In this document: piece by piece, positions 30,059 through 60,865 of the stretch
Numbering within the stretch: position 1 is the first letter of the stretch
Layout: every line of letters begins with the position of its first letter
Assembly (NCBI GenBank): GCA_964455675.1
Contig: CAYVYK010000007.1
Span: 40,166-104,165, forward strand
Direction of reading: 5' to 3'
DNA from: an uncultured Methanosarcinales archaeon
Lineage (GTDB): Archaea; Nanobdellota; Nanobdellia; Woesearchaeales; CAYVYK01
Length of the DNA stretch: 64,000 nt
Translations under genes and position numbers: made by a program
Notes under the pieces: model-generated
The model's database searches: none
Told to the model about the DNA's origin: nothing
The model's input: the letters and a program-made list of their open reading frames with translations, nothing else

Positions 30059-30060
30059 AT

Positions 30061-33471: not shown

Positions 33472-35124
33472 CTAGCTGATCACAATCTCTGGAGGCAGAT
33501 TATTGCTATCCTCCGCTGTTGGCTCCACCGTAGGAGCGGGCGTCACAACCGGGGTTACCGAAGGTGCTTGACCAGCTGGGGCCTCTTCTGCCAAGAGAGT
33601 GTCCAGAATCAGCTCAAATTCTGCCTTCTCCTTGCCGAGGTCGTCCTCCTGCTCATAACCTGTGCCAACGCGCACATACCTGCAACCGAAGATGAATGTC
33701 GGGATTGATCCATCGGGATTGTATTTCTGGTACACTGCCATTTCCGCATCAGGCACAGTTCCTTCTTGACCAGTCACCAATTCTTTCCCGGTATCAACCT
33801 CCCAATGGTATGCTGTAATCAAATCACGGTCTGCGTAGTCCTTGAGAACCGCGTCAACTGTGTCCTTTATCCACTGGCAATGCGGGCACCAGCTTGTCGT
33901 AAACACACGCGCAATTGGCTTACCCTCTGCATCACGGCAGATCGGATCGCTATTCATCATGAATGTCAGATCACCGACGGGAGCCGACTCCACAACAGAG
34001 GGTGTTGGCGTCGCAACCATCGATTGCGAGAAGACAATCTTTGCTGTGGATCTCAATTCAGAGATGTAATCATCGATCGCCTGGCGCTGCCCCGCAATCG
34101 CAAGTACGCGCTCAGAAGGATCTGAGATGTCGGTCAGGAGCTTCTGCTCTGCCTCTAGGTGGCTTGAGACTTTGATGATGTGAAAACCAAATTGGGTCTG
34201 TACAACATCAGATACCTGACCTTCCTGTAGAGCAAACGCAGCATTCTCAAACTCTGGAACCATCTGACCTCGCACGAAATAGCCAAGGTCACCAGCAGTC
34301 TCTTTCGTAGCATCCATGTTATACTGAGATGCCAAAGCTTCAAAGCTTGTGCCCGATTTCAACTGCTGCAAGAGATCAGCGGCAATGGTCTCATTTCGCA
34401 CGTATATATGGCTTGCCCGGATACGTTCAGGAAGCTCAACAGGCTTTACCTTAAAGACCGTCTCATTAATCAGGATTGCAAGCCTATTCGTGTCCTGGTA
34501 AAACGTAATAAAATCTGTCCTAGATATGTTCCTGCTCGAGAGCTCCATCTCAATCTGCGAGAACGGAATCGGGGAAGCATTGAACAGACGGCTCACAAAC
34601 GCCTCAGCGTCCGCGTAACTGTAGTCAACACCCTGCTTTTCCGCCTCCTCTGACAGAAGCTTTTGCACCACAAGGTATTCCGACAAAAATTGTGATTTTG
34701 GCAGCATATCCTTCTGGGAATCCGGAATACCCGACAGGAAGAAATAAAGTTCATATTGCTTGTTCAATTCCTCCTCTGTTATCGGCTGACCATTCACTGT
34801 CGCTGCAATACCAGCTTTCAGGTCACCAACGTCTGATCCTGGTGGTTCGGCCGTTTGAGGAGTGAGCAACCTTGGAAATACAACCATGACAAGTACTGCC
34901 ACGACAATCAATACTGCAACAAGAATAGTGATAATAATCCAAGCGGGAGTCTTTTTCTCATGCTGATGGTGGGAGTGGTTCTTCTTTACCTCAGCATCCT
35001 TTGATCCGTTATGCTTGTGACCCTCATGATGCTTGAAAGACGCACTTTCCTTACGATCGTCCAGCGGCATGTCATCATTATCCTCATCCATCTCTTCAGT
35101 TTCTGTAGGATCCTTTTCATTCAT
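33472..35124 (-). CDS. membrane-anchored fusion of PpiC/parvulin PPIase domain and thioredoxin-like CxxC domain, with His-rich cytoplasmic N-terminus
   Basis: Start likely ATG 35124 (MNEKDPTE), not track 35244. N-terminal HHEGHKHNGS...NHSHHQHEKK, one TM helix, then parvulin core SHIYVRNE...GDLGYFVRGQMVPEFENAAF...GFHIIKV. C-terminal WCPHCQ thioredoxin motif. Confidence 0.7.
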   Translation of the reverse strand: MNEKDPTETEEMDEDNDDMPLDDRKESASFKHHEGHKHNGSKDAEVKKNHSHHQHEKKTPAWIIITILVAVLIVVAVLVMVVFPRLLTPQTAEPPGSDVGDLKAGIAATVNGQPITEEELNKQYELYFFLSGIPDSQKDMLPKSQFLSEYLVVQKLLSEEAEKQGVDYSYADAEAFVSRLFNASPIPFSQIEMELSSRNISRTDFITFYQDTNRLAILINETVFKVKPVELPERIRASHIYVRNETIAADLLQQLKSGTSFEALASQYNMDATKETAGDLGYFVRGQMVPEFENAAFALQEGQVSDVVQTQFGFHIIKVSSHLEAEQKLLTDISDPSERVLAIAGQRQAIDDYISELRSTAKIVFSQSMVATPTPSVVESAPVGDLTFMMNSDPICRDAEGKPIARVFTTSWCPHCQWIKDTVDAVLKDYADRDLITAYHWEVDTGKELVTGQEGTVPDAEMAVYQKYNPDGSIPTFIFGCRYVRVGTGYEQEDDLGKEKAEFELILDTLLAEEAPAGQAPSVTPVVTPAPTVEPTAEDSNNLPPEIVIS

Positions 35125-35214
35125 GAATAATCCCCCCTTGTGATACCCCCGTGGAGTCCTTCCACGATTAATAAACTTTGTGCATTTTTCCCACCGAGAG
35201 AGATTACCGATAAG

Positions 35215-35222
35215 TATAAATA
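35215..35222 (+). promoter_or_regulatory. TATA box (tataaata) 23 nt upstream of ATG 35245
   Basis: Read directly. Confidence 0.45.
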
Positions 35223-35244
35223 GAAAGCAACCGGCCTTTCTCAT

Positions 35245-40884: not shown

Positions 40885-41337
40885 ATGCAGCGCACCGGCA
40901 TTCTCGTGGCACTTCTCGGCGTCCTCTTCATAGGCCTTCTCATGATCGGACGAGGAATCACAGGGATGGTCATCTCGGGACAAGAAGTCAGCAGTGACTG
41001 CAGTAGCAGCATCGAATGCGGAAGCGGACAGGTATGCTGCAAATTCTACGGAAAAGAGTTTGGCGTCTGCCACCTGCAAAGCCAGTGCCTCAAGATCACC
41101 GAGATAACGCGAGAAGAACAGGAGAATTACGCAGACTTTCTCAACATCATAAACACGGAAGGTATAACCGTCGAGGAGCCGGCACAACTCTATGTTCACA
41201 CCATCGTTCGGGATCCAGAGGAGACACCACACCTCACACTTACTGAAGGAATGCTCGGGCTCATCATCGCGATGCTCGCATTCATCGGGCTGTACCTCTT
41301 TCTCCACTACGATCAACATCTCATGAAGACACATTGA
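40885..41337 (+). CDS. small membrane protein with extracytoplasmic Cys-rich segment (two terminal TM helices)
   Basis: 150 aa. SD agaagg. DCSSSIECGSGQVCCKFYGKEFGVCHLQSQC between N- and C-terminal helices. Confidence 0.4.
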   Translation: MQRTGILVALLGVLFIGLLMIGRGITGMVISGQEVSSDCSSSIECGSGQVCCKFYGKEFGVCHLQSQCLKITEITREEQENYADFLNIINTEGITVEEPAQLYVHTIVRDPEETPHLTLTEGMLGLIIAMLAFIGLYLFLHYDQHLMKTH

Positions 41338-47123: not shown

Positions 47124-47125
47124 CC

Positions 47126-49108
47126 ATGGCACGGGACAGCAGCGCGATTACGCCAAGACTCAGAAAAGAAGTAGATGAAAGACTTAGCAGAGCTCTTGGC
47201 AGACCAGCCCGTGAGGAAATAAACGTTGAAGTGCAGAGCCCAAAACCAGACCCGCGCGACGATGAATTACGGCGACGAGAAGCAGAAATCGCCAGACGAG
47301 AACAACAAATTCTTGATGAACAACGGAGGGTTCGGGACGACATCCGTGAAAGGGATATCGAAGCCAAGAGAACCCTCGATACGGCAGGCGATGCCCCACC
47401 AAAGAGAGGATTTTTAAGCAGAATTGGAGGCGCAGCAAATTGGACGGGAGGAGCGGCAAAGACCACCCTTCGAACAACCGTGAATGTCGCGCAAGGAACC
47501 ACGCAGGTCCTTTCTAAAAATTACACCGCACTCTTCATCGCGGCAATGCTTATCAACTTTGTCGACGGCCTCATGAACTATGGACGGCCGTACTGGAGAT
47601 TTTCCATGTACCTCCTCCTTGCCGTGCTCAGCTGGGCGTTTGTCATCAGGCATCCAGGGGACAATTTCAAGGGCCATCTCTTCACATTTGGTGAATCGCT
47701 TGTCATGGCAGCAGCAGCGTTCTTCTGGCCCCTCTTCTGGTTCCGGGTTGCAGGGTACACACCAATCGACATAGAAGTATTCCGCATACTCGTCAATATC
47801 TTCCCGTTCTATCTCATCTATATCTTCATGTCAAATGACCCGGATTGCAGAAAAAGCACATTCATCCGGATATTCAAATGGGTCTACTTCATCACAATCA
47901 TCCTCCTTATCGTCTCATTCTTCCCAGCACTCGCGGAAGCACGAACACTCCAAAACATCCCATTCCTCCATCCAGCCGAGAATGCTGATGTGTACGGCAC
48001 ATACTCACGATACATCAGCCTCGTCTCCAACGGATGGAACTGGATCAAGGGGACAACCAAAACAACCATCTCAGATATCGACAAGTTCTGGGAGTTACAG
48101 CAAAAAGCGGCACTTGGAGACCTCTATATAGGTGATGTTGACAATGAAGCTGACAAACCGCTGGGCGTCGTACTCAGGGATGTCAAGATGAGCCAGAAGA
48201 TATACACCACATTTGATGACGTGGAGATCCAAGGCCAAATAGACTCAATCAGCCTTGACAGAGATGTCGCGGTAATCATTGGCTGCATTGCAGACAAAGG
48301 CAGCAAGACGCCGATCGAAGCAGTAAGCTACCCCGCAGGAAAGGAACTCGAACTATCAAGAAGCGAAAGCGCAAGTGTCAACTGCATATTCCCCGCAGGA
48401 ACGCTCCCCAGCGGATCGCACAGACTCGCGATGACAAGCAGATTCGGATTCACAACATCAGCGTACATGCCAGCATACTTCATCGATAAAAACCGGGCAG
48501 ACGCCCTGCGCGAGGAAGGAGACAACATCTACAAGCAGCTTCGCATCACAGAACCACTTTCCGACAACAAGATATCAAACGGAGAGCCAAAAACCGTCAC
48601 TACGAGCGGACCTGTCAATATTGGCATGGGAATACCAAACGTGCTTACTGAAGTTGATATCCAGAAAGACCAGAAAGTGTTCAACCTCAAGATCACATTC
48701 ACCAACTCCTGGGGCGGAGGAGAATTCCCTGGAAAGATCAAGAATGTCCGAGAATGGTACATCCAAGTACCAAAGGAAATGGAGATCGCGGCGGACACGA
48801 CAGGAAACACGAAATGTTCGGGCAAGAAATTCATCGCCACAAGATGTCCATCGGGTGATAAGAGATGTGACGATGTGAATTACAAGACCTATAAGCTTGA
48901 CCCAAGTGTCAAACTCACAGAAATCGACTTTCTTGATAGTATTGCATGCACGATCGTCATTCATGGCAACAGCTTCAATGATCTTCTCGGCACAGGACCC
49001 CTCGCCGCAAAGCAGTTCCGCACATGGATGACGTACGATTATGAATACGAGCGCGGCAACCTGAACATCAACATCAAAAAGGAGGAAACAAACGATGCCG
49101 TCACGTAA
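47126..49108 (+). CDS. membrane protein with charged coiled-coil cytoplasmic N-terminus, about 5 TM helices and about 380-aa extracellular domain, hypothetical (operon gene 2)
   Basis: 660 aa. ATG 2 nt after the upstream stop. RRREAEIARREQQILDEQRRVRDDIRERD, then a hydrophobic cluster at aa 170-330. Confidence 0.5.
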   Translation: MARDSSAITPRLRKEVDERLSRALGRPAREEINVEVQSPKPDPRDDELRRREAEIARREQQILDEQRRVRDDIRERDIEAKRTLDTAGDAPPKRGFLSRIGGAANWTGGAAKTTLRTTVNVAQGTTQVLSKNYTALFIAAMLINFVDGLMNYGRPYWRFSMYLLLAVLSWAFVIRHPGDNFKGHLFTFGESLVMAAAAFFWPLFWFRVAGYTPIDIEVFRILVNIFPFYLIYIFMSNDPDCRKSTFIRIFKWVYFITIILLIVSFFPALAEARTLQNIPFLHPAENADVYGTYSRYISLVSNGWNWIKGTTKTTISDIDKFWELQQKAALGDLYIGDVDNEADKPLGVVLRDVKMSQKIYTTFDDVEIQGQIDSISLDRDVAVIIGCIADKGSKTPIEAVSYPAGKELELSRSESASVNCIFPAGTLPSGSHRLAMTSRFGFTTSAYMPAYFIDKNRADALREEGDNIYKQLRITEPLSDNKISNGEPKTVTTSGPVNIGMGIPNVLTEVDIQKDQKVFNLKITFTNSWGGGEFPGKIKNVREWYIQVPKEMEIAADTTGNTKCSGKKFIATRCPSGDKRCDDVNYKTYKLDPSVKLTEIDFLDSIACTIVIHGNSFNDLLGTGPLAAKQFRTWMTYDYEYERGNLNINIKKEETNDAVT

Positions 49109-50195
49109 CACCCAGCTTATCTTCCTCGTAGTACTCACAATTCTCAGCGGGTGCGGATCAACAACCCGCACCGTCTATGACGAGAGTGTCCATACGGGAA
49201 CGAAGGGGCTCGAGATGACGTTCCTTAAGAACTATCCAGCAAACAGAATCGATGAACAAAGCGTTTTTGACATCGCATTTGAAATGGAAAATGCAGGAGC
49301 GAGCGACATCGAGGATGGCATGATTCAAATCATCGTTGACCCTCCGCTCTCATTCATCGGATGGGATTGGGGATCACTCACGACACAAGGACAGGACCCC
49401 TCAACACCGTTCTATCTTGAAGGACGATCAAAAAGCAACCTTGTCGGGGACAGGGGAATCGTCACCGCTCGCCTTCGATCAGCCGCGCTACCGCTGAATA
49501 CACAAATCATGCACCCAAAAATATTCATCAATACATGCTACGCATACGAAAGCATATTCAGCAAAGAAGTCTGCATTGACCCAAATCCCCTCCCAGGATC
49601 GATCGGAGAGGAGACATGCACGGTAAAAGATGTAACCAGTTCAGGACAGGGAGGGCCTGTAGGCGTGAGCAAGGTTGAAGTCCTCCTCTTTGATCCGAAC
49701 AACGGCGACCGGTTTTTAGGATACAGTGGTGAAAGCGACAGGTATACTGACGTCGGAACAGAGCTCGTACAGCCAGAGTTTAGGATCTACATCAAGAACT
49801 TCGATGACGGTAACGTCATCAACGCACAGCATGTAAGCCTTGCATGCGGCGAAGGAAGCGAAGGAATCGAGTTCAACAAGGTTGACGTTCAAGCATTCAT
49901 CTTTGACAATGAACTAGAATGCAGCGAGCCAACCGTCTACCTCTCGCGCGACGACAACAGCTATCTCTCATGCTGGCCGCGCGATGGCGTCAGGAGAAAA
50001 CAAAGCAGTTACTACGCCCCCCTCGTCGTCAAGATGCAGTATGGATACGTTGACTACATCTCAAAAAGCGTTGATGTACACAGAAAGTTCTACGAAGATG
50101 AAGATGATGAACCAATACGGCCAGTCGGTGAAGCAGACTACCATCCAGAGCCAACCATAAATGATCCAACATGGAATGTGGACAGCAACATTTAA
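49095..50195 (+). CDS. putative lipoprotein, paralog A (operon gene 3)
   Basis: 366 aa. SD aggagg. Signal plus lipobox-like LSGC. Shared motifs with the next two genes (GTKGLEMTFLKNYPA, CYAYESIFSKEVCIDPNPLPG, PLVVKMQYGYVDYISKSV). Confidence 0.55.
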   Translation: MPSRNTQLIFLVVLTILSGCGSTTRTVYDESVHTGTKGLEMTFLKNYPANRIDEQSVFDIAFEMENAGASDIEDGMIQIIVDPPLSFIGWDWGSLTTQGQDPSTPFYLEGRSKSNLVGDRGIVTARLRSAALPLNTQIMHPKIFINTCYAYESIFSKEVCIDPNPLPGSIGEETCTVKDVTSSGQGGPVGVSKVEVLLFDPNNGDRFLGYSGESDRYTDVGTELVQPEFRIYIKNFDDGNVINAQHVSLACGEGSEGIEFNKVDVQAFIFDNELECSEPTVYLSRDDNSYLSCWPRDGVRRKQSSYYAPLVVKMQYGYVDYISKSVDVHRKFYEDEDDEPIRPVGEADYHPEPTINDPTWNVDSNI

Positions 50196-50220
50196 TAACT
50201 TTGAAACGAAGGTGAAAACC

Positions 50221-51219
50221 ATGAAGCCAAAACTTACGGTGGTATTCATTCTTATGCTTCTTGGCATAATGGCCTGTACCTCGACAACGAGACCAACACA
50301 GGACCAGGAACGCTTTCGGATCGGAACTGAAGGACTTCATATCGAATTCCTCCAGAACACTCCTGCCGCAAAAATATATGACGACCAGGAACTGAATGTC
50401 CTCATCCAGATACAGAACAAAGGAGCATCAGATCTCGACGGGACTGCGAACAGGATATACCTCGACGGATTCAGCACTGACGTCATCACGGGAACCCCGA
50501 TCAGCGGCAAGCAGATCGGACGACTCGAAGGAAAAGACAGGTACAACCTCGATGGAGATCTCACAATCATTGATTTTCAAGGAAATATCCGCAACCTTGG
50601 CTCACGAGGAATTGACAGGCTCCCGCAAACGATTAAAGCGACTGTCTGCTATGGGTATGAGACCATCGCAAGTATCCCAGTCTGCATCGATCCTAACCCC
50701 TTCTCAACACGCAGCGAAGAAATCGTATGTACGGGAGGAAGAGGAACGTTCTCCTCAGGAACCGGCGCTGGCATCGGGAGCACGAATCTTGCCGGAGGGC
50801 AGGGAGCGCCTGTTGCAGTAACAGACGTACAGACAGAATCTCTCCCTGGACGAACAAAGTTCCGCATCACAATCAAAAATACCGGAGGACAGAACGGCAA
50901 GGGCGTTGCATTTCGCGATGGATTCGCGTACCTTGACCGATGCAATCCTTACGACCCGACCGGCCTCGATGCATTCAGAGACGCGGGATACGTATACCTT
51001 GAAGATGTTGACATCGATGGCATGTCCATTGCGGGAAGCTGCACACCTATGAAGCCAGATGGCCACATCCAGCTTTTCAGCAACCAAGCGATTATCTTCT
51101 GTGAGTACAGCAACATGCCACAATCAAACCCGTATGTCACACCACTCACGATCAAGCTTCGGTACGGATACCGAGACTCCATTGTGAAGCAAGTCACGCT
51201 CCTCTCCCTACCTGACTAG
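50221..51219 (+). CDS. putative lipoprotein, paralog B (operon gene 4)
   Basis: Start at ATG 50221 (MKPKLTVVFILMLLGIMAC) with SD aaggtga; the track start 50161 overlaps the upstream gene. Motifs GTEGLHIEFLQNTPA, CYGYETIASIPVCIDPNPFS, PLTIKLRYGYRDSIVKQV. Confidence 0.55.
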   Translation: MKPKLTVVFILMLLGIMACTSTTRPTQDQERFRIGTEGLHIEFLQNTPAAKIYDDQELNVLIQIQNKGASDLDGTANRIYLDGFSTDVITGTPISGKQIGRLEGKDRYNLDGDLTIIDFQGNIRNLGSRGIDRLPQTIKATVCYGYETIASIPVCIDPNPFSTRSEEIVCTGGRGTFSSGTGAGIGSTNLAGGQGAPVAVTDVQTESLPGRTKFRITIKNTGGQNGKGVAFRDGFAYLDRCNPYDPTGLDAFRDAGYVYLEDVDIDGMSIAGSCTPMKPDGHIQLFSNQAIIFCEYSNMPQSNPYVTPLTIKLRYGYRDSIVKQVTLLSLPD

Positions 51220-51354
51220 GAATACGGCCTAGAAGACTTGTATTCTCACCAACAAATGGCATGAAGCACGCCTCATTTCCAAAAAGTTTAAATAAGTAGC
51301 CTACTCGGGGGTGAGGTATATCAGTATATATATTCATTGCACGGAGGAATCATC

Positions 51355-52281
51355 ATGAAGAGGATTGCATTGCTCTTATTACTCGTTCTTATGGCAGCGT
51401 GCGCTGGCGAACAGCAGACACCCATCGGAGCGAACCCCTACGTTGGAGGCGATATCGGCATCGAGGCAGAGTTTGAGCCATTCGGTGTCAGAGACCAAGA
51501 CAGCAGCCTCTATGAAATTTTTGAAGGAGAGGCGTTCCCCATTGAAATCACCCTTAAGAACAAGGGAGAATTCAAGATAGAACCGGGTATGGTAACTGCC
51601 ACGCTCAAAGGAATCAATATTCAGGACTTTGCAAATATTGCGCAGGACGGCATCCTCCAGAACACCGAAAGCATTGATGAAGTCACGGAACACAACCTTG
51701 ATGGAGGAGAATCAACCCTTGATTTCACGTCAGCAGCAGAAGACGCAAAATATCTCATTCCAATCAGCGGAAGCTCAATGGACGTCAGTGTGTATGGTGA
51801 AGTGGTATTTGAATACAAGACATACGCCATCGTCCCACAAGTCTGCTACAAGCAGGATCTCAAGGATGAACGAATCTGCGACCCTGAAGAAACAAAGACC
51901 GTGTACTCCTCATCAGGACCAATCCAAGTACGTGTCGCAGAAGAAAAACTTGCAGGGCATAACAAAATTGCTATGGAATTCCAAATTGAAGATATGCATC
52001 ACAAGGATGATTACACGACTGTCGCAAAACCCACCGAGGAGTTTGATAGCCGGTTTGACCAGCTCTCATTCACCGTGGAGCCAGCCGCGGACTGGGAATG
52101 CAAGAGCAGCGGAAAAGTTAACGAAGCAAGGCTTGACGATTCCGGAAAGGCAACCATCAGATGCGTCCTCAAGAACGAACTCGAGGATGGAACACTCTTC
52201 ACACGACAGATGGACCTTATCCTGCACTACAAATACCGTGACTTGATCAAAGAAGTGGTGCGCATCAACTCAGAGGATTAG
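51355..52281 (+). CDS. putative lipoprotein, paralog C (operon gene 5)
   Basis: Start ATG 51355 (MKRIALLLLLVLMAAC) with SD ggagga. Motifs VCYKQDLKDERICDPEE and LILHYKYRDLIKEVVRIN parallel paralogs A and B. Confidence 0.5.
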   Translation: MKRIALLLLLVLMAACAGEQQTPIGANPYVGGDIGIEAEFEPFGVRDQDSSLYEIFEGEAFPIEITLKNKGEFKIEPGMVTATLKGINIQDFANIAQDGILQNTESIDEVTEHNLDGGESTLDFTSAAEDAKYLIPISGSSMDVSVYGEVVFEYKTYAIVPQVCYKQDLKDERICDPEETKTVYSSSGPIQVRVAEEKLAGHNKIAMEFQIEDMHHKDDYTTVAKPTEEFDSRFDQLSFTVEPAADWECKSSGKVNEARLDDSGKATIRCVLKNELEDGTLFTRQMDLILHYKYRDLIKEVVRINSED

Positions 52282-52304
52282 CGCTTCTAATATTTTTCTC
52301 TTTT

Positions 52305-53267
52305 TTACTTTTCGTGAGCAGCTAGAACTACGCTTGCGAGTAGGGTCTCAAGCTGAAGGTACTCGTCGCTCCCTTCCGTCATGCGAAACTCTATCTCACC
52401 GCAGCGCTCGATGAGCTGCATCTTCTTCCGGTTATCGATCTCAAGATTTAGGATCTCACGGTATAACTGCTTGATCATGTCAAGACCCGAAAGACCATTA
52501 TTCAGCATAACCTCAAGGAGCTTCTTCCTTGCGTCCACAAACTTACCCTTAACACACAACGCCAAGATATCAGCAACCTCCTTGGGCTTTGCAAAAGAGA
52601 TTGTGGAAAAGACTTCCTTCTCAGAAATCTTGCCATTCGCCGTCGAAGCAACAGACTGGAGCACGTTTTCCATGCGCCGCACGTCACCACCAGAGACTTC
52701 AAAGAGCGCGTCCCTTGCGGCTCCGTCAAGATGAAGACCCTCATCCTTCGCGATACGGTCTACGAGCACAAGCATATCATCCTTTTGCAGAGGCTTGAAA
52801 TGAAAGATGGCGCACCTTGACTGAATAGGATCAATGATCTTTGATGAATAATTGCAGCTTAGAATGAAGCGGCATGATGTAGCATAATTCTCCATTGTGC
52901 GACGCAAGGCCTGCTGGGCTTCCCTCGTCAGTGCATCGCACTCATCAAGGTAGATAATCTTGAATGGCACATCACCCATTGCCATGGTCCTTGCAAAATC
53001 CTTGACCTTCACTCGAACAACATCAATACCTCGTTCATCACTTGCGTTCAGCTCAAGAAAATTCTGCCGCCAGGATTCGCCAAACAACTGCTTTGCAACA
53101 ACAAGAGCAAGAGTAGTCTTACCAATACCAGCGGGACCTGCAAAGAGAAGGTGAGGGATATTCTTTTTTTCCACAAAAGATTTTACCCGATCAACAATGT
53201 CCTTCTGACCGGCCACATCCGAAAACGTTTTCGGACGGTATTTTTCAGTCCAGATCTCGCTCGTCAT
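52305..53267 (-). CDS. rfcS: replication factor C small subunit
   Basis: 320 aa. WTEKYRP, Walker A GPAGIGKTT, DEADAL-type Walker B (LDECDAL), SRC motif (SRCAIF). No intein. Confidence 0.9.
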   Translation of the reverse strand: MTSEIWTEKYRPKTFSDVAGQKDIVDRVKSFVEKKNIPHLLFAGPAGIGKTTLALVVAKQLFGESWRQNFLELNASDERGIDVVRVKVKDFARTMAMGDVPFKIIYLDECDALTREAQQALRRTMENYATSCRFILSCNYSSKIIDPIQSRCAIFHFKPLQKDDMLVLVDRIAKDEGLHLDGAARDALFEVSGGDVRRMENVLQSVASTANGKISEKEVFSTISFAKPKEVADILALCVKGKFVDARKKLLEVMLNNGLSGLDMIKQLYREILNLEIDNRKKMQLIERCGEIEFRMTEGSDEYLQLETLLASVVLAAHEK

Positions 53268-53334
53268 GATTCCTGTGGGGTGCTGGACAGTATAAATTAC
53301 TTACGATTCAGACGCAGAGAATACACAATCGTTC

Positions 53335-53598
53335 TCAGATGATGTCTTCTTCACTAATGACAACGAAGTCGCCAACAGCCATCACAGCGCTGAATGGCAC
53401 GAGCAAGCGGCCTTCCTTGTTCTTCTCAAGCTCAAGCTTGTCTGTGTACACGGTCGGATTATGAAGCACAATATGGATGAGCTCGCCACTGCGCGTCTCA
53501 AACACAATGTCACCAACCTCACCGAAGCGCTTGCCGCTCTTAGAAACAACTGTCTTACCGATGATCTGCTTGGAAAACTTTTTTTCATCTTCGGGCAT
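53335..53598 (-). CDS. PRC-barrel domain protein
   Basis: 87 aa. Typical archaeal stand-alone PRC barrel (GKTVVSKSGKRFGEVGDIVFE...GDFVVISEE). Confidence 0.6.
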   Translation of the reverse strand: MPEDEKKFSKQIIGKTVVSKSGKRFGEVGDIVFETRSGELIHIVLHNPTVYTDKLELEKNKEGRLLVPFSAVMAVGDFVVISEEDII

Positions 53599-53774
53599 GA
53601 TTTCCCCCCTTCGTGAGCAACTGATAAGGCTAAATTATAACTCTTCTTGAGTAAACACAGTGGATCACCAAAATGGCCATGAGTATTTAAAGTTTTCTCC
53701 CTGCGAAATTTACGAAGTAGAAGCCTGCAAAAGCTCAAAAACCTTTTATACTAGCAATTTCAAAGGAAACACAG

Positions 53775-54551
53775 GTGAACTCTATGACCTATCTCGAAAA
53801 AGCAGTCCAGCCAAAGCATGTTGCCAACCTCAAACTCATCCCCACTGGAATTCCGGGGCTTGACGAAATATTCAACGGAGGCATAAGGGAGCGAAGCAAA
53901 GTCCTTGTCACAGGAGGCCCAGGAAGCGGAAAAACGGTCCTTTGCATCCAATTCCTCTATGAGGGGGCAAAACGAGGAGAAGCTGGAGTGTACATCACGG
54001 TCGAAGAGGATCCGGACCAGCTTCGCTTGAACGCTCGAGAGCTCGGCATGGACATCGAGAAATTCGAAAAGAATGGCCTCATCACCATCATAAAACAGAA
54101 TATCACCGGAAGAAAGCTCATCGCCATTGGAGCACCAATGGGCCTTATCCGGAAAAATAATGTAAAACGAGTCGTCCTTGACAGCCTCACGCTCTTTAAG
54201 TATATGCTGTTCAATTCCGAGACTGACTTTAGGAGAGAACTCATCGGATTCCTTGACAGCCTGAAAGACATAACGGTGCTCGCAACCTCGGAACGATCCC
54301 TGCCAAGCCTTGACAACATCAACTGGATGGCAGAAGACTTCCTGTTTGAGGGAGTGGTCATCCTTACCAAGATTCGCAAAGAACAGAACTATGAACGTAC
54401 CATCGTGATCTCCAAAATGCGCGGGCAGGACCACAAGCTTGACGTATTCCCATTCACGATCGAAAATGGAGGCATCAAAGTCTTCAGCAAGGAGGTACCA
54501 TTCTCACTCATTGAACAGGACATACGAGCACAACGCCGAGGAGGATCATGA
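53775..54551 (+). CDS. KaiC-like/RecA-superfamily single-domain ATPase
   Basis: 258 aa. GTG start 23 nt after TATA ttttatac (53745-53752); alternative ATG at 53784. GIPGLDEIFNGGI, Walker A TGGPGSGKT, Walker B VVLDSLT. Confidence 0.8.
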   Translation: MNSMTYLEKAVQPKHVANLKLIPTGIPGLDEIFNGGIRERSKVLVTGGPGSGKTVLCIQFLYEGAKRGEAGVYITVEEDPDQLRLNARELGMDIEKFEKNGLITIIKQNITGRKLIAIGAPMGLIRKNNVKRVVLDSLTLFKYMLFNSETDFRRELIGFLDSLKDITVLATSERSLPSLDNINWMAEDFLFEGVVILTKIRKEQNYERTIVISKMRGQDHKLDVFPFTIENGGIKVFSKEVPFSLIEQDIRAQRRGGS

Positions 54552-55237
54552 GTCGAGTAAAGACAGGCATCAACAATCTCGACCCTCTCGTGAGCGGGGG
54601 GTTCAAGAAAAACAGCGTGAACCTCATTGTTGGGATGCCCGGCTCAGGAAAGAGTATATTCGCCGCGCAGTTCGCGTGGGAAGGTATCCAAAGCGGCGAG
54701 GGGGCTATCTTCATCTCCTTTGAGGAGAAGAAAAAGAAGTTCTACGATGACATGAACTCATTCGGCTGGGACTTTGAGGAGGCTGAGAAAAAGAAGAAGT
54801 TCACGATGCTCGAATACACTCCAGAACAGGTGAAGAAGATGCTTACAGAAGGAGGAGGCATCGTTGAATCAATCATCGAAAAAACAAAAGCGAAACGCGT
54901 AATCATCGACAGCATCACCTCGTTCACCTTACTTTATGAGGACGAACTTACGCGAAGGGAAGCGAGCCTTGCGCTCTTTGAGCTCATCGATAGCTGGGAC
55001 ACAACTGCACTACTGACTAGCCAGGGAGCGGGGGAATCATCAGATATCGTGGAGGCAGCGATGGAGTTTGAAGCAGACAGCATCATCTTCCTTCACCACG
55101 TACGAAGAAAATCAGAACGAGTGAGAGCACTCGAAATTCTCAAAATGCGCGGCACGGAAATACCGGAGAAAGTCTTTGATCTCAAGATCGACAAGCACGG
55201 GATTACGGTCGATCCCCACAAGTTCGTAGAGCTCTAA
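54548..55237 (+). CDS. KaiC-like/RecA-superfamily single-domain ATPase (second paralog)
   Basis: 229 aa. ATGA overlap with the upstream gene. INNLDPLVSGGF, Walker A GMPGSGKS, Walker B VIIDSIT. Internal EEKKKKF repeats. Confidence 0.8.
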   Translation: MSRVKTGINNLDPLVSGGFKKNSVNLIVGMPGSGKSIFAAQFAWEGIQSGEGAIFISFEEKKKKFYDDMNSFGWDFEEAEKKKKFTMLEYTPEQVKKMLTEGGGIVESIIEKTKAKRVIIDSITSFTLLYEDELTRREASLALFELIDSWDTTALLTSQGAGESSDIVEAAMEFEADSIIFLHHVRRKSERVRALEILKMRGTEIPEKVFDLKIDKHGITVDPHKFVEL

Positions 55238-55312
55238 CGTCTCCACACCTGATTCTCAGTATCAAAGCCAGGAAGTTTTAAATAGCGTTTTACCTGATTT
55301 TATCGAAAAGAG

Positions 55313-58300
55313 GTGCAGGATTTGCGACAATCACAGATCAGTATATTCTTACTTGTTGTCATCGTCGTCATGATCGGAGCAGGAATCCTGTATGTCGAAG
55401 TCATCAGGAATGCAGACCAGCCGATCACAACAATCCAGAGCAGTAAGGACGTCCTCACAAATCTCAAGGGATATGTCGAATCTTGCATCGAAGCGGAAGG
55501 TATCCCGCTCATCCACGCAATGGCTCTTGGGGGAGGGAGAGTGTCTATTCCAGCAAACACGAGCGTCCTCTATCGCGGCCAAACATACCATGTCATCTGC
55601 ACACCAACAGAATCAAAACGATGCGCCCCAACACTGTGGCTTAGACAAGATGCGGAAGATGACATCAGCAGACAGCTCGAAACAAGAATCGATTCCTGCC
55701 TCAACCTCAGCTACCTTGCCAGCATCTACGACGTAACCAAAGGAACACCACACGTGCAGACAAAGATAGGAAGGGAAGATATCGTTTTTGAGCTCACATA
55801 CCCAATCACGATCAGCGGAGAAGGAAAAACACAGCAGGCTGAGACGTATGAGAAGAGAATCGCCATCCCTGTGGGGAGAGCGTATGAAGTCGCACATGAA
55901 ATACTCGAGCACGAGACAACCCAAGGATTATTCGAACAAGATCTGTGGATGCAAACGCATGAGGGATGGATGATCACAAAACATAAACCGTTTCCTTACA
56001 TCGTCTATAATGTCACCTTTATAGAACCAGAGCGAACCATTACCTGGCTCTTTGCCCTTCAAGAACAGGACAGCGCAGGAGATATACGGTTTCACACATT
56101 ACCAGAGATGGCACACCCATGCTGCATGAATCACTATGACAAACTCGTCTATGCAAACACACCGTACGACCTCTGCATCATGAAGGGAGGCACTCCAAGC
56201 AGCTCGTGCACGATGGAGCTAGTACCAAATATTCAACAACAGTTCTGTAATGGGCTACCATGCAAACCTTGCGAACATACATATGAATACAAAACAGGAC
56301 GCTCCAGCGGAGAATCACGAATGCACGGCGAATCATGGTGCGCATACGACAGCGTCGTAAAAAGCAAAATCGGCGAAGGAGGATACAGCTACGTTGGCAG
56401 CAGGCACTACAAGCATTACTGCCTCGATGGGAAAGAATACATCGAGGAATGCGCTGACTACCGAGAGGAATTGTGCACAGAACAAGAATATCCGAGCGGG
56501 ATGACCCATGCCGTCTGCAGAGACAACCGTTGGAGGGACTGCTCCCAATGTGAAACACAGGAATGCTGCGAGAATGCAGAGTATCGCGACTGCAGCTGGA
56601 GTCCCTGGACACTTGCAGAACACAAGTGCGTCCCTCAAGTTCCACCAGGACTACGATTCTGGATGGGAGATGGCCTTGGCGTGTGCAATCTCGCGAATGA
56701 GTACCAAGAATGCGAAGGATTCAGCTGCCCGTACCGATATGTGCAAGGAACAGCGGCAAGCTGCTATCGGCACGGGGACTGTGGCAACTACCGAAATATG
56801 GACGACAAACTCACCATGGAAGGATACTTTGAAAGCGACTTCAAAGACCAAGTGAAAGAGATCACGTACCAGCAGGAAGGCCTTAACAAAAACCCGACGG
56901 AAATCGGACGCGACGGACTGCACGCCCCACTGTACGGCCTTGACACTCAGCAGCTCGCACAAGGGGAGATGCCTGACACGTTCAGCGCGTTTTACCAATA
57001 CCTCATATTACTTGGAACAAACCTCGATCGGCTATCGGGAATCTCGGTTACTGATTTCCTGCCGTGGAACAAGAGACCTGCCATCACTATGAATACGATG
57101 AGCTACTGTGGGCTCTGGCAACCCCCAACAGGAGGAGATCGATGCCACATCTGCGGCGAAGGAAGAATCTGTACAGAATACCGCTGCAAGAGCCTTGGAA
57201 CACTCTGCACGTATGAAGAACGAAACGGATACGGAATCTGCACTGCAAGCGTTCCGAAAGGAGAAGTCATCATCGATCTTGACAAAGCAGCCATAAGCCG
57301 TGGGTACACTGCGGAAAAAGCTGCGCTTGTCCTGAACGGAAAGGAATTCAAAGGATATCGCATCACTCCTGCACTCGAACCATACCGACTCTTTCGCCTT
57401 GGGATTATCAGCAATCAGGACGTACGATGCAAGATGAGCTATCTACCCGAAGGAAAGTTCAGCACACTCATCCCTATGTTCGAAGAGCGGGGGTATCAGC
57501 GCGCACACAACTACAGCATCCGAGTGCCAGAAGCACTACAAGTGCCTTCAAACATCAAAGACTCACTTGACGTTGAACACCTAGAGGAGGTTATGGACTG
57601 GGCAGAGCACCCCATCGTCAAATATGATGAGCTCAAAGCACAGCATCAGACGATAATGGCGCTGTACGACGCGTTCACCGGAAAAAATTCGCAACAGGAG
57701 TCTGACACCTTCTTCTATACAACATTTGTCCCGCTCCTTACGGGGTACAAGACAATGTACCCCTACTCGTTTGCTGCAATGCGGCACATCCTTCGAGGAC
57801 TTGAGGAACACAGGTACTACATCTTCTTCGCGTGCCAAGACAAAGCAGGAAATCAGAACAAGGACTACATGTTCGTCGAACTCTCCATCGGGCCACGCAA
57901 TGAGAGTCGAGAACCCGAGCTCCTCGGGTATGACCCATCAACAGAAGTCTCTGCACAACTCACAAGACTACCAGTCACACTCTATTTTGACCAACCAGTG
58001 CTGTGCAACTATGACCAGGAAGAGACGATGTATCAGAATATGAAGGCAAAGTTCGCATGCCAGACAAACAAATACAGCCTCACCCCAAAGTATGGAGGAA
58101 GTTACACGTGCACAGCACCCATTGACATGCCTGGACACGACATAGGATTACATGTGACATGCATCCCGTACTATAGCTCGCGAAAGGTGATAACCCTCAA
58201 CATCAATCCGGGAACGGAGACGAGCATTAGCGGAACGAGCAGCCCCTGGATCATCAACGCAACAAGAAATGGAGTGAGGCTCCATTTTGAGCGATATTTG

Positions 58301-58858
58301 AGCGAGAACATGATCCGAAATATAAGCATCGATGGAGCGTTCCTCAACCTCAGCATGGGCATGGAGCAGTATCCCCAATGCAGCATCGCGGTTGGCGGAG
58401 GTGATGAGCAAGCGATGGTCAATTGCTACAAGTCCCCAGACCTCTCATACGGAGTATACACCTGCCAGGAACTTATCGGAATCAGCGGAGAAACCGAGAT
58501 CCACATCATCTGCGGAGAGAAGCCAATAGCTTCGCAGCAGTATCATTATACCATCAATTTCAGCAAAACACGAACGCTACCTCCACACACTCTGCCAGTA
58601 CAAGAAGCGCACGCGGGAACCCCATTTAATGTCAGCATCATATTCACAGGGCGCGCTCCCGAAAGCCTCGTGTGCTCTTACAGCATCAGCCTGAATGAGG
58701 GATTCGTCGTCATGAAGCGGGAAGAGAAGGAAACAAGCACGATATTCTCTGCACAATACACGCAAGAAACACCAGGAATATTCAATGCCGCAATCCAGTG
58801 CACCGACGCGCACGGCAATTATCTTTTTGAGCGAAGCCAGGCTATCATCGAGAACTAA
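55313..58858 (+). CDS. giant extracellular protein with N-terminal signal-anchor and extremely Cys-rich region, hypothetical
   Basis: 1181 aa. GTG start. TM ISIFLLVVIVVMIGAGILYV. More than 60 Cys, concentrated in aa 250-620 (e.g. CSQCETQECCENAEYRDCSWSPW). Confidence 0.55.
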   Translation: MQDLRQSQISIFLLVVIVVMIGAGILYVEVIRNADQPITTIQSSKDVLTNLKGYVESCIEAEGIPLIHAMALGGGRVSIPANTSVLYRGQTYHVICTPTESKRCAPTLWLRQDAEDDISRQLETRIDSCLNLSYLASIYDVTKGTPHVQTKIGREDIVFELTYPITISGEGKTQQAETYEKRIAIPVGRAYEVAHEILEHETTQGLFEQDLWMQTHEGWMITKHKPFPYIVYNVTFIEPERTITWLFALQEQDSAGDIRFHTLPEMAHPCCMNHYDKLVYANTPYDLCIMKGGTPSSSCTMELVPNIQQQFCNGLPCKPCEHTYEYKTGRSSGESRMHGESWCAYDSVVKSKIGEGGYSYVGSRHYKHYCLDGKEYIEECADYREELCTEQEYPSGMTHAVCRDNRWRDCSQCETQECCENAEYRDCSWSPWTLAEHKCVPQVPPGLRFWMGDGLGVCNLANEYQECEGFSCPYRYVQGTAASCYRHGDCGNYRNMDDKLTMEGYFESDFKDQVKEITYQQEGLNKNPTEIGRDGLHAPLYGLDTQQLAQGEMPDTFSAFYQYLILLGTNLDRLSGISVTDFLPWNKRPAITMNTMSYCGLWQPPTGGDRCHICGEGRICTEYRCKSLGTLCTYEERNGYGICTASVPKGEVIIDLDKAAISRGYTAEKAALVLNGKEFKGYRITPALEPYRLFRLGIISNQDVRCKMSYLPEGKFSTLIPMFEERGYQRAHNYSIRVPEALQVPSNIKDSLDVEHLEEVMDWAEHPIVKYDELKAQHQTIMALYDAFTGKNSQQESDTFFYTTFVPLLTGYKTMYPYSFAAMRHILRGLEEHRYYIFFACQDKAGNQNKDYMFVELSIGPRNESREPELLGYDPSTEVSAQLTRLPVTLYFDQPVLCNYDQEETMYQNMKAKFACQTNKYSLTPKYGGSYTCTAPIDMPGHDIGLHVTCIPYYSSRKVITLNINPGTETSISGTSSPWIINATRNGVRLHFERYLSENMIRNISIDGAFLNLSMGMEQYPQCSIAVGGGDEQAMVNCYKSPDLSYGVYTCQELIGISGETEIHIICGEKPIASQQYHYTINFSKTRTLPPHTLPVQEAHAGTPFNVSIIFTGRAPESLVCSYSISLNEGFVVMKREEKETSTIFSAQYTQETPGIFNAAIQCTDAHGNYLFERSQAIIEN

Positions 58859-59049
58859 GCTTCAATATTCTCGTCATCAGTCTCGTTGTCTTCTTCACAA
58901 TCCTCAGAATCACAGGAATCACACTCACAGCACGCGTCACAATCCTCACAGTCACTACAGCCAGTCGTGGAAAGCAATGTCGTGGCGACCATCGTAACAA
59001 ACAAGACGAGAACAATCAGCGCAATCACTCGATGGGTCCTTTCCTGCAT
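58855..59049 (-). CDS. small membrane protein with Cys/Asp/Glu-rich C-terminal tail
   Basis: Start at the internal ATG 59049 (MQERTHRVIALIVLVLFVTMVATTLL), then STTGCSDCEDCDACCECDSCDSEDCEEDNETDDENIEA. Convergent 4-nt overlap with the giant gene. Confidence 0.35.
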   Translation of the reverse strand: MQERTHRVIALIVLVLFVTMVATTLLSTTGCSDCEDCDACCECDSCDSEDCEEDNETDDENIEA

Positions 59050-59089
59050 ACAAGTGCTAAGCAGAGATTGGTATATAAAGGTTTTGTGG

Positions 59090-59812
59090 CTACTTCTTCG
59101 CCTTCCGCCACGTATATTCAAAATATGTACGATAAGAATCGGCGATAGTCTTATTCTGGATAAGGATAGCAAACGGTGAATCAGTCCAAAGGACAATCAC
59201 CACTTTATTCCCATAGATGTTGACAGCCATGGGGTTTTGGAAATCCTCTGGTAGAAAGCGGATGTCAGCCAATGGAATCTTTCTCAAATATGGATTCTTA
59301 CGAGCAGAATCATCAAATAACATCCGGATCGGAATCCTCTTCTCGGATCTTGCACGGTCGAATCGCTCAAAATAGAATCTCACAATATCAGAAGCGTTCA
59401 CTGAAGCATTGATCACAAGGATTGGCTTAGCGTCTGCAACCTGGTCATCAAACACAGCTTTGAGCGCTTTCGCACCACGAAAATATGATACTTCCTGCTC
59501 TTCACGATGCGCTGAAAACAATGAGAGCATGCTGGGCAGAGATTGGCTCAGTGCTTCCTTCTTCTCATCTAGCAGATTTATCAAACGCTGTGGCGATGAG
59601 GGGGAGAAGACTGTCCTATTGTTCTGGCGGATTGTCGACACGAGACCCTTCTGCATGAGCCGCTCAAGCGCATCATACACAGATCTTCGATGAACACCTG
59701 AATGCCTTGTGAGAATGCCAGCGTGCGATGGGCCTAGCTGCAATAATGAGCTGTACACCTTGGCTTCCAAGGGGGTTAAACCCGCCTCCTCCAGTGTTGC
59801 GGTATTCATCAT
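59090..59812 (-). CDS. TrmB-family transcriptional regulator
   Basis: Start probably ATG 59812 (MMNTATLEEAGLTPLEAKVYSSLLQLGPSHAGILTRHSGVHRRSVYDALERLMQKGLV). wHTH plus TrmB C-terminal domain. Confidence 0.75.
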   Translation of the reverse strand: MMNTATLEEAGLTPLEAKVYSSLLQLGPSHAGILTRHSGVHRRSVYDALERLMQKGLVSTIRQNNRTVFSPSSPQRLINLLDEKKEALSQSLPSMLSLFSAHREEQEVSYFRGAKALKAVFDDQVADAKPILVINASVNASDIVRFYFERFDRARSEKRIPIRMLFDDSARKNPYLRKIPLADIRFLPEDFQNPMAVNIYGNKVVIVLWTDSPFAILIQNKTIADSYRTYFEYTWRKAKK

Positions 59813-59908
59813 ATTACTATTATGGAGGATCTTAATAAAGGTTATGGTGATTGATATCACCACAAATATTTAGGTAGTTCTTGTGATTACCACTCCATAC
59901 AACGGAGG

Positions 59909-60865
59909 ATGATACCTATGGTTACCACATTCAAAGTAGCAGTCATCGATCAGGATGAAACACTCGAAGAACTTACTGCACGAAACGCGCACGTATTTCT
60001 CACAGCGCAGCAATACACATTACCCGTGTACGACCTTGTACGAGAGGAATTCGAGGCAGCACTGAAAGCAAAAGCGCCAATCGACAGACGCAAGAAAACA
60101 CAGGAAAAAAAAATAATGAGCGGAGACGTGGAATTCACTCTCAAGACAAACCGAAGCGAACGAACTGCATACCAAGCTGCAGGACAAGCGCTGCAGGTAT
60201 TCCTTGCAGACCTTGCCACTGCATATGATGCGGGAAAACGCCCACAGGGGATACTCACAATCAATGATGCCCCTTACATCAAAGCAAGTGATGTCCAAGA
60301 AAAAATCTTACGGACCGAGAGGGAAAACACCGGCTTTACGTTCACCACAACAATAGAATATGACGAAGAGGATGCCGTAACCATCTCGGATGACCAGACA
60401 CTCGCGCTTCGACCAGGAGAGTACCATGATCTTACCACAGAAAACGCGCGCGACTATATCGCCGTAAGGTCACAGCAAAGCATCGTCAAGAAGAACGTGA
60501 TTGACGCGTTCAAGGATGCGGTAAAGACTCGCACGGGATACTCACGCGACAATGTGCCAGAAAAAACAGTTGTTGCACTCTACGAAGTCGGAGACACCAT
60601 CTGCAGCGTCGTCGTCTCACCGCGGGACGATATCAAGTACAAGAACGCATTCGAGGACTTTGCGCGCATGGTAGCAGGGAGCATACAAGCCGCAGACAAG
60701 ACAACCGTTGAAGACGTTGCCGTGCGCAACGGAGAAGCATACATATCACTGCGCGGACTCATCAAAACGTACGAACAATTGCTCGATCGATACAAAGGAA
60801 AGACGGTCCAGCAAGACGTGAGCATCATACCAACCCCACGATGGGATCACGTCGTTGCAGAGTGA
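59909..60865 (+). CDS. hypothetical cytoplasmic protein
   Basis: 318 aa ORF with no recognisable motif. Divergent from trmB. Confidence 0.4.
   Translation: MIPMVTTFKVAVIDQDETLEELTARNAHVFLTAQQYTLPVYDLVREEFEAALKAKAPIDRRKKTQEKKIMSGDVEFTLKTNRSERTAYQAAGQALQVFLADLATAYDAGKRPQGILTINDAPYIKASDVQEKILRTERENTGFTFTTTIEYDEEDAVTISDDQTLALRPGEYHDLTTENARDYIAVRSQQSIVKKNVIDAFKDAVKTRTGYSRDNVPEKTVVALYEVGDTICSVVVSPRDDIKYKNAFEDFARMVAGSIQAADKTTVEDVAVRNGEAYISLRGLIKTYEQLLDRYKGKTVQQDVSIIPTPRWDHVVAE

Follow-up and report, generated by a model that had tools for sequence, protein, structure and literature searches.

The described systems that come closest to the locus discussed here are of several kinds. ArlH (FlaH), the KaiC-like, ATP-binding partner of the archaellum ATPase ArlI, is a single-domain protein of ~230 amino acids (aa) with a KaiC/RecA fold and is encoded immediately beside secretion ATPase and platform genes. 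The archaeal KaiC-like signal-transduction ATPases are also single-domain proteins found near type IV pilus machinery (Makarova et al.; PMC4858521), KaiC families have been tied to archaeal type IV pilus loci (PMC4858521), and KaiC pairs beside such loci are a known theme. Among the pilus systems themselves, a layout with one ATPase and two platform genes, TFF system 1, has been reported in DPANN archaea (bioRxiv 10.64898/2026.04.22.720090). Large proteins with pilin leaders and adhesins carried on immunoglobulin (Ig)-like stalks are likewise known kinds of protein. Modular (multi-domain) type IV pilins and pseudopilins, e.g., PilB and PilC of Streptococcus sanguinis and GspK of the type II secretion pseudopilus tip, are a further kind. 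In the 64,000-nucleotide (nt) stretch of the archaeal contig CAYVYK010000007.1 analyzed here (the window), a region of four open reading frames (ORFs) holds two KaiC-like genes (KaiC1 and KaiC2), a gene for a very large Cys-rich surface protein (the giant) and a convergent ORF of 64 aa (Table 1).

The reading that we favor, with somewhat better than even confidence, is that the region of this DPANN archaeon (Woesearchaeota) consists of three separately transcribed genes or gene pairs that share a cell-surface theme and do not form one conserved module. The KaiC pair would be an ArlH-like partner or regulator, the giant a "mega-pilin" adhesin and the small ORF a lipid-anchored peptide rich in Cys and acidic residues. 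This reading draws directly on domain identities, a conserved leader motif, disulfide-type covariation and neighborhood statistics. Loci and proteins of other assemblies are cited below by labels beginning with L and P, respectively.

Both KaiC proteins match the Pfam family KaiC (PF06745, cut-off 26.6 bits), KaiC1 with E 6.9e-55 and 186.4 bits and KaiC2 with E 2.3e-56 and 191.2 bits, and the two are 32% identical to each other. Their Walker A (GGPGSGKT and GMPGSGKS, respectively), Walker B (VVLDS and VIIDS) and Glu-Glu (VEE and FEE) motifs are present. These results bear out the original prediction, made from the sequence alone, of a pair of single-domain KaiC/RecA-like ATPases overlapping by ATGA (at position 54548). 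A circadian KaiC has two tandem KaiC domains, ~500 aa in total, and the pair scores far below that model (NF006799, 144.7 and 143.3 against a cut-off of 408). The NCBIfam model for ArlH (NF052589) gives 33.2 and 61.5 bits against a cut-off of 215. At E<=1e-20, KaiC2 has 807 homologues, of which the best 119 listed share 57-78% identity with it; KaiC1 is 50% identical to the gene immediately upstream of KaiC2 in L084. By their motifs and recurrence, KaiC1 and KaiC2 are a conserved pair of active-looking single-domain KaiC ATPases.

The genomic setting of the KaiC2 orthologues points to pili. Five long contigs of other Woesearchaeota place the pair, or KaiC2 by itself, no more than 3 kb from a T2SSE (ATPase) gene and two T2SSF (platform) genes; in all but one of them, the space between holds a gene of ~145 aa and a divergent gene for the KaiC-like DUF7504. 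A scan of metagenome contigs gave 80 further KaiC2 loci. Of the 11 with at least 7 kb available on both sides, 10 have T2SSE and T2SSF within 8 kb of KaiC2. Among the 30 with 4 kb or more upstream, 21 contain pilus genes, and in 34 of 54 the gene immediately preceding KaiC2 is KaiC1. The pilus arrangement, a single ATPase with two platform genes, matches that of TFF system 1. Since the orthologue loci hold a pilus ATPase and platform genes, and in view of the literature cited above, the suggested link between such KaiC homologues and surface filaments is supported for most of the other Woesearchaeota loci. In the window, neither DUF7504 nor T2SSF genes were found, and the T2SSE genes are more than 20 kb away from the pair.

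The KaiC proteins thus resemble ArlH in size, in domain number and, for the KaiC2 orthologues, in being encoded immediately beside secretion ATPase and platform genes. They differ in scoring far below the ArlH cut-off, in coming as a KaiC1-KaiC2 pair, often with DUF7504, and, in this window, in having no adjacent pilus ATPase or platform gene. Unlike the signal-transduction ATPases of Makarova et al., with which they share the single domain and the proximity to type IV pilus machinery, they have no KaiB-like or other output partner identified here. By analogy with ArlH, KaiC1-KaiC2 would act as partner or regulator of a system-1-type pilus ATPase encoded elsewhere in the genome. Being tightly linked to the genes of a pilus ATPase and its platform, the pair is a candidate ArlH-like partner of pili other than archaella. 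Full-text literature searches returned no description of the near-constant placement of KaiC1-KaiC2 in DPANN pilus loci, and this placement appears to be new.

Two observations on the layout of these loci may be added. In many KaiC1-KaiC2 loci, the divergent DUF7504 gene, a third and degenerate KaiC-like protein of ~188 aa (L084:4575-5135(-), L086:3976-4548(-), L087:5600-6163(-) and L088:5572-6141(-)), stands together with the ~145-aa gene, which has no Pfam match, between the T2SSF genes and KaiC1. In a second locus type, KaiC2 occurs alone, immediately after the second T2SSF gene.

The KaiC pair and the giant were originally presented as though they formed a unit, and they do lie on the same strand with a spacing of only 75-84 nt. 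A TATA-like box is found ahead of each of KaiC1, the giant and the small ORF (Table 1). Such motifs are rare, with 40 in 128 kb (the window, both strands), and because they start 30-45 nt before each start codon, we read them as probable promoters of three separate transcription units, KaiC1-KaiC2, the giant and the small ORF; the mRNA of the small ORF would probably be leaderless. The position first given for the start of the region, 53745, begins no ORF and falls inside the first of these boxes. A scan for sigma-70 promoters and terminators gave nothing above shuffled controls and is unsuited to an archaeon; it was set aside.

The alternative, that the KaiC pair, the giant and the small peptide constitute one module in which KaiC senses or regulates display of the giant, therefore has to contend with a TATA-like box between KaiC2 and the giant. 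It also has to contend with the distribution of the genes. No KaiC gene occurs within 10 kb of a giant homologue in any of 79 other loci, and no giant homologue stands beside KaiC2 in any of the 80 metagenome loci, including the 26 whose downstream flank is 3.6 kb or longer. At the best-matching giant loci, the neighbors are unrelated. Moreover, the best listed homologues are 57-78% identical for KaiC2 and 23-35% for the giant, so that the two evolve very differently. In favor of one module are the adjacency of the genes and the association of archaeal KaiC families with type IV pilus systems (PMC4858521). The closest relative, whose KaiC2 is 78% identical, also keeps the order RFC, PRC-barrel, KaiC1, KaiC2, and there a same-strand gene starts 56 nt after KaiC2 and is cut by the contig end. 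Taken together, these data make a single module quite improbable, and we retain the reading of separately transcribed units.

The start of the giant is best placed at TTG 55322 and not at GTG 55313, because a Shine-Dalgarno-like GAGGTG, read directly from the sequence, ends 6 nt before this codon, because the resulting 1178 aa equal the length of the called product P0001 in the independent assembly L004 (run SRR12133404), and because the N-terminus then becomes the family-typical MRQSQISIF. L004 carries the giant without a frameshift and differs from the window at six nucleotides (56425, 56428, 56431, 56506, 58841 and 59126). Five of the six are inside the giant and four of these five fall on third codon positions; three are exactly 3 nt apart, all at third positions. 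As the differences are few and change a single residue, the giant ORF is not an assembly artefact. The pattern suggests purifying selection on the giant and strain-level variation between the two assemblies.

The giant belongs to a family of 78 clusters at 90% identity among 5.8 billion proteins, with at least 119 matches in a one-genome-per-species collection and two copies in some genomes. Identity to its best listed homologues is 23-35%. The family is found almost only in Woesearchaeota (labels Woesearchaeota, Nanoarchaeota or Nanobdellota). Named homologues of both the giant and KaiC2 come almost exclusively from metagenome-assembled genomes with these three labels, and the many other homologue records labeled "Methanosarcinales" are probably mislabeled. 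The housekeeping neighbors in the window are archaeal (a replication factor C (RFC) small subunit, a PRC-barrel protein, a pelota/eRF1-like protein, GatD/GatE and Cdc48). The giant has no match in Pfam or NCBIfam, and its profile has none among PDB sequences; across the family, a weak Big_13 Pfam match in 6 of 35 members is the only one. A second DPANN family (P0059-P0078, with named members from Pacearchaeota and Diapherotrites) has the core, the seven-Cys module and the Ig-like domains too.

At its N-terminus the giant carries a class III (prepilin-type) leader. Across 54 members, the N-terminal sequence follows [KR][GAS]Q[IV][ST]xF[IV][IL]xG and continues into a hydrophobic helix, and a motif scan flagged giant N-termini in 67 loci. 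The family shows each element of a class III signal: the charge, the G/A/S residue, the cleavage site and a hydrophobic helix of ~20 aa. In a strict scan of the window for pilin-type leaders, the giant alone was returned. An AlphaFold2 model built on the family alignment reaches a predicted local distance difference test (pLDDT) of 84.4 and a predicted template modeling score (pTM) of 0.79 for the full-length protein, and a pLDDT of 91.6 with a pTM of 0.90 for residues 43-655. In the model, an N-terminal helix spans residues 3-34 and is followed by an alpha/beta module with weak structural neighbors among pilins and pseudopilins (minor pilins). The N-terminal half as a whole, including the Cys-rich core, has no strong structural neighbor in the PDB. 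The C-terminal half consists of tandem beta-sandwich domains, as in Ig-like/Big surface proteins.

The cysteines of the giant merit separate attention. Count and spacing analysis gives 46 Cys (3.9%) with three CxxC and two CC, fewer than the more than 60 in CxxC/CC clusters claimed at first; the other ORFs of the window contain 1.08% Cys, and the giant is 3.6 times richer. Twenty-seven of the residues cluster between residues 270 and 490, and seven lie between 599 and 643. In the 54-member alignment, 39 of the 46 are kept in at least 80% of sequences. In every one of the 54 sequences, the two members of each of the pairs 96-104, 312-317, 380-402, 413-418 and 467-472 occur together or are missing together, and where a pair is lost, other residues, not gaps, take its place. 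In all, 23 disulfides are predicted for the giant, these five pairs among them. Because they are lost together across the alignment, we read these covarying residues as bearing the signature of disulfide partners and not of obvious metal sites. The seven cysteines of the module at residues 599-645 are all invariant in the 54 sequences, and the module recurs in P0059 and P0076.

On the strength of these features we take the giant to be a surface protein of modular pilin type, a "mega-pilin" as judged from its leader and its model, in agreement with the earlier description of an N-terminally anchored, Cys-rich extracytoplasmic protein. Compared with PilB, PilC and GspK, it is about three times larger, archaeal, bears a leader of the [KR][GAS]Q type and adds a disulfide-rich core and Ig-like domains; the structural similarity to these proteins is weak. 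Full-text literature searches produced no description of the family. A Woesearchaeota-wide family with a core that is modeled at high confidence and is without a strong PDB neighbor appears to be new.

Other pilin-like genes occur near giant homologues. Close to homologues, leaders of this kind are also found on proteins of 250-750 aa, several of which share a "..YVE.C.." N-terminus as judged by eye. In a distant subfamily, pilin-like genes of ~160 aa follow 5-35 nt downstream of the giant homologue. In two loci, the genes at L028:3806-4240(+) and L034:3204-4118(-) have an archaellin-like N-terminus (MKKGEMGVGTLIIFIAMLLVAAVAAGVLI) and lie 345-606 nt downstream of the giant homologues.

The small ORF is convergent with the giant, and their stop codons overlap (TAG 58855-58857 and TAA 58856-58858, respectively). 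This arrangement, together with the Cys/Asp/Glu tail, is as originally reported. The label "lipobox lipoprotein precursor" fits the product better than "membrane peptide". A positively charged n-region (MQERTHR) precedes a hydrophobic stretch of 20 residues and the lipobox T-T-G-C, and the predicted mature part has 34 residues, of which 8 are Cys, mostly with CxxC spacing, and 17 are Asp or Glu. The lipobox fits the pattern of Lgt-processed bacterial lipoproteins, [LIVMFWSTAG]2-[LIVMFYSTAGCQ]-[AGS]-C. As in metallothioneins, CxxC repeats dominate the mature part. In contrast to both groups, the small ORF is archaeal, and its predicted product is extracytoplasmic, extremely acidic and only 34 residues long when mature; it has no sequence homology to metallothioneins, and no gene for Lgt (prolipoprotein diacylglyceryl transferase) accompanies it in the window.

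Is the small ORF a gene? Some points favor a chance reading frame, or a TCACA repeat at the DNA level, within the 231 nt that separate the two convergent genes: short and imperfect direct repeats make up the coding sequence of the tail, an open frame of 64 codons would not be especially unlikely in so short a spacer, and a word-index search of the 5.8 billion proteins returned no homologue, as did BLASTP against the neighbors of giant homologues. Against this, the ORF has a canonical n-h-lipobox signal and a TATA-like box that starts 30 nt upstream, shows no nucleotide difference between the window and L004, where it is also called as a gene, and has three homologues in an exhaustive phmmer search of 1.84 billion representatives (E 1e-4 to 1e-3). 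These are of the same size (62-67 aa) and architecture, with CxxC repeats and an acidic tail after an L/I-S/T-G-C lipobox. P0201, one of the three, is separated by 1 nt from a downstream gene with a match to the Pfam family LGT. The other two are on contigs of ~0.5 kb, where the next ORF is weakly Lgt-like in one case (E 0.045) and without a match in the other.

The class also recurs beside the giant. With a filter of our own (a regular expression selecting products of <=170 aa with a lipobox and at least 4 further Cys), 19 small lipoproteins turn up in the 108 kb that make up the 800-nt surroundings of giant homologues (at 17 of 80 loci), compared with 14 in the remaining 809 kb. The number expected near the giant is 1.9, corresponding to an approximately tenfold enrichment (Poisson P = 2e-13). 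Most of the enriched ORFs are on the strand opposite to the giant, either convergent and downstream (L046, L053, L040, L047 and L062) or divergent and upstream (L009, L012, L024 and L037). In view of the phmmer homologues, the enrichment beside the giant and the adjacency to Lgt, the small ORF is very probably a real gene, and a chance frame is very unlikely. It belongs to a fast-evolving class that recurs beside the giant and Lgt.

Ribosomally synthesized and post-translationally modified peptides (RiPPs) offer another comparison, since SCIFF peptides are Cys-rich. A precursor of the SCIFF/ranthipeptide type would be short, with an N-terminal "leader" ahead of a Cys-dense core at the C-terminus, much as seen here. 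The N-terminus of the small ORF is instead a hydrophobic secretion signal with a lipobox and no RiPP leader, the recurrent partner gene is Lgt, and no radical-SAM or other maturase was found among the annotated neighbors. We consider a RiPP precursor to be the most remote of the alternatives discussed here. From its composition, the mature product is most plausibly a thiol- or metal-binding peptide at the surface, and its chemistry could be metal binding, thiol-disulfide exchange or that of a simple charged tether.

Lgt itself is a repeated neighbor. An Lgt-like ORF occurs within 10 kb of a giant homologue in ~15 of ~77 non-redundant loci. In L002, L010, L012/L013, L024, L031 and L037, a small lipoprotein gene abuts Lgt on the same strand; in related loci of this kind, Lgt is the gene directly downstream. 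A small lipobox ORF likewise abuts Lgt in L171/L172, and in L053 two small lipoprotein ORFs lie ~140-350 nt downstream of it. The Lgt proteins from these related loci match Pfam PF01790 with E 1e-31 to 1e-44 (cut-off 24.9 bits). A 2025 study of archaeal lipoproteins stated that no archaeal Lgt homologues had previously been identified (PMC12462473). As judged by their Pfam matches, contigs of Woesearchaeota and related archaea encode clear homologues of the bacterial-type enzyme. Full-text literature searches gave no description of a neighborhood of giant, small Cys-rich lipoprotein and Lgt, and its recurrence appears to be new.

These neighborhoods allow a more far-reaching picture, in which the giant, small Cys/acid-rich lipoproteins and bacterial-type Lgt form a recurrent, previously undescribed surface module. 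The lipopeptide would be the membrane-proximal thiol/metal partner of the mega-pilin, serving as anchor, redox helper or metal store, and the giant core would be a new fold for attachment of an episymbiont to its host. We regard this picture as unlikely in its entirety. If it were true, a by-product would be that these archaea carry genuine Lgt homologues, contrary to the 2025 report (PMC12462473). The small Cys-rich lipoproteins beside the giant and Lgt provide a lead on archaeal lipoprotein biogenesis, which has only recently become experimentally tractable.

Two further kinds of protein were seen in these neighborhoods. In L006, a lipoprotein of ~267 aa (L006:5231-6049(-)) is convergent with the giant homologue; a Cys/acid-rich linker (CSEMDKESGCGGCLDGCCDESKEDE) comes after its lipobox, and the part C-terminal to the linker has by eye the look of a transglutaminase-like core. 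Transglut_core proteins, 657-689 aa long, also occur in the vicinity of the giant in L001 and of the KaiC loci in L087 and L088.

How the giant is displayed is the point at which the favored reading faces its strongest competitor. Cleavage of the prepilin-type leader would fall to a class III signal peptidase, after which the N-terminal helix could serve as a membrane anchor or insert into a pilus or at its tip. The Ig-like stalk would then hold the disulfide-locked core away from the membrane or filament, most likely for adhesion to a host cell or surface, and the small lipoprotein, whose mature part would be a lipid-anchored (CxxC)n/acidic tail, may assist or partner the giant. Several observations weigh against this scheme. 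The leader in the window has Q at -2 and its charge at -3, whereas most members have K/R at -2. Giant homologues are usually not beside pilus machinery. The window's own pair of a 760-aa T2SSE and a 747-aa protein has counterparts within 10 kb of a giant homologue in L001/L005 only (63% and 53% identical, ~4-6 kb downstream of it). Pfam scans found no prepilin peptidase (peptidase A24) in the 64-kb window, and no T2SSF platform gene or Lgt was found there. Since none of these genes was found in the window, processing of the giant and lipidation of the small-ORF product presuppose genes in other parts of the genome. In addition, the enrichment of small lipoproteins depends on our own regular-expression filter and is seen in ~21% of loci.

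Class III leaders also occur on non-pilin archaeal proteins, such as the sugar-binding proteins of Sulfolobus (bindosome). The giant might accordingly be a membrane-anchored envelope protein, an S-layer-like or bindosome-like spike, and no filament subunit. Its spread through Woesearchaeota at loci that mostly lack adjacent pilus genes, the large Ig-like stalk with many disulfides and the frequent envelope neighbors (Lgt, lipoproteins, glycosyltransferases and the parvulin-thioredoxin fusion) would all suit such a protein. The two copies in some genomes and the further proteins with the same leader are more typical of pilin sets. The ~160-aa pilin-like genes that follow directly in the distant subfamily and the weak structural matches to minor pilins also speak against it. 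We see the envelope protein as a genuine but clearly lesser possibility, and continue to read the giant as a pilin-type protein whose function is most likely that of an adhesin.

A life attached to other cells is generally assumed for DPANN archaea, Woesearchaeota included, and their attachment molecules are almost unknown. The giant family is conserved, lineage-wide and ~1,200 residues in length. With its pilin-type leader, its confidently modeled, disulfide-locked core and its Ig-like stalk, the giant is a concrete candidate attachment protein for structural and localization studies. The family thus offers a tractable candidate for host attachment in DPANN archaea, a role that we infer from these features.

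Table 1 Positions of the features discussed (window positions unless a locus label is given)
Feature	Position	Strand	Remarks
TATA-like box	53744..53751	+	TTTTATAC; starts 31 nt upstream of KaiC1 GTG
KaiC1	53775..54551	+	258 aa, GTG start
KaiC2	54548..55237	+	229 aa, ATG overlapping KaiC1 stop (ATGA)
TATA-like box	55277..55284	+	TTTAAATA; starts 45 nt before giant TTG 55322
Shine-Dalgarno-like motif	55310..55315	+	GAGGTG; 6 nt before TTG 55322
Giant ORF	55313..58858 from GTG; 55322..58858 from TTG	+	1181 aa; 1178 aa
Class III (prepilin-type) leader and hydrophobic helix	55322..55414	+	M-R-Q-S / Q-I-S-I-F-L-L-V-V
N-terminal alpha/beta module (model)	55442..56092	+	residues 44-260
Cys-rich core	56093..56842	+	residues 261-510; invariant HGESWC, VGSRHY, NRW.DC, VPPGLRFW, GDCGNYRN
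Seven-Cys module	57107..57247	+	residues 599-645; C..WxxPxGGDxCxxCG....CTEYRCKSLG..C
C-terminal half	57272..58855	+	beta-sandwich, helical insert (residues 746-831), ~four Ig-like domains
Small ORF	58855..59049	-	64 aa, predicted lipoprotein precursor; signal MQERTHR-VIALIVLVLFVTMVATTLLS-TTG-C, then CSDCEDCDACCECDSCDSEDCEEDNETDDENIEA
TATA-like box	59072..59079	-	TTTATATA; starts 30 nt upstream of small-ORF ATG
T2SSE	5099-6166		355 aa
T2SSE-type ATPase (760 aa), then 747-aa protein	27815-32343	-	Pfam; second protein with ~8 transmembrane segments
SurA-N, parvulin peptidyl-prolyl isomerase and thioredoxin-like fusion	33472..35244	-	590 aa
Lgt	L002:5638-6417	-	
Lgt	L010:2606-3376	-	
Lgt	L012:170-1012	-	
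Lgt	L024:643-1446	-	
Lgt	L031:7033-8031	-	
Lgt	L037:4706-5554	-	
Lgt	L053:3669-4532	-	
Lgt	L171:4070-4813	+	

Elsewhere in the window, other envelope and T2SSE-type genes are present. The 760-aa T2SSE-type protein matches Pfam over residues 419-600 only, and the 747-aa protein encoded with it, which has no Pfam match, may be a fused platform protein. The parvulin-thioredoxin foldase that had been noted in the sequence is present; it may be an extracytoplasmic folding and disulfide catalyst, and in L050, L033, L025 and L018 a homologue is encoded no more than 10 kb from the giant homologue. An Rfam scan of positions 52000-60500 returned no match.

A five-gene, same-strand envelope cluster (45849-52281, +) lies just upstream of the RFC gene. 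Its members have no significant match in Pfam or NCBIfam, only weak sub-threshold ones, e.g., to CARDB. They comprise a 424-aa protein with a single transmembrane (TM) segment, a 660-aa protein with a charged coiled N-terminus and at least two TM segments, and three lipobox lipoproteins of 366, 352 and 314 aa (LSGC, IMAC and MAAC, respectively). Two of the three lipoproteins match the same ORF in L050; the homologue of the second lies at the edge of that contig, ~10 kb from the giant homologue of the same genome. TATA-like boxes precede positions 45849 and 51337.

Two further Cys-rich reading frames were noted. At 40885-41337 (+), an ORF of 150 aa without a Pfam match carries a short Cys-rich stretch (SSDCSSSIECGSGQVCCKFYGKEFGVCHLQSQC) between TM segments at its N- and C-terminal ends; the "Cys micro-ORF" of the original prediction is probably this one. 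The ORF at 16470-16988 (-), with a very Cys-rich stretch (KDWCCSCENDCICCCDECEIRHDD), is antisense to a DegT aminotransferase gene (16473-17573, E 1.5e-116) and is most likely not a gene. Finally, a 535-aa protein encoded at 39234-40841 (+) contains two ThyX (Thy1) matches and is about twice the usual length, and the gene for a 124-aa SET-domain protein (38712-39086, -) adjoins it.

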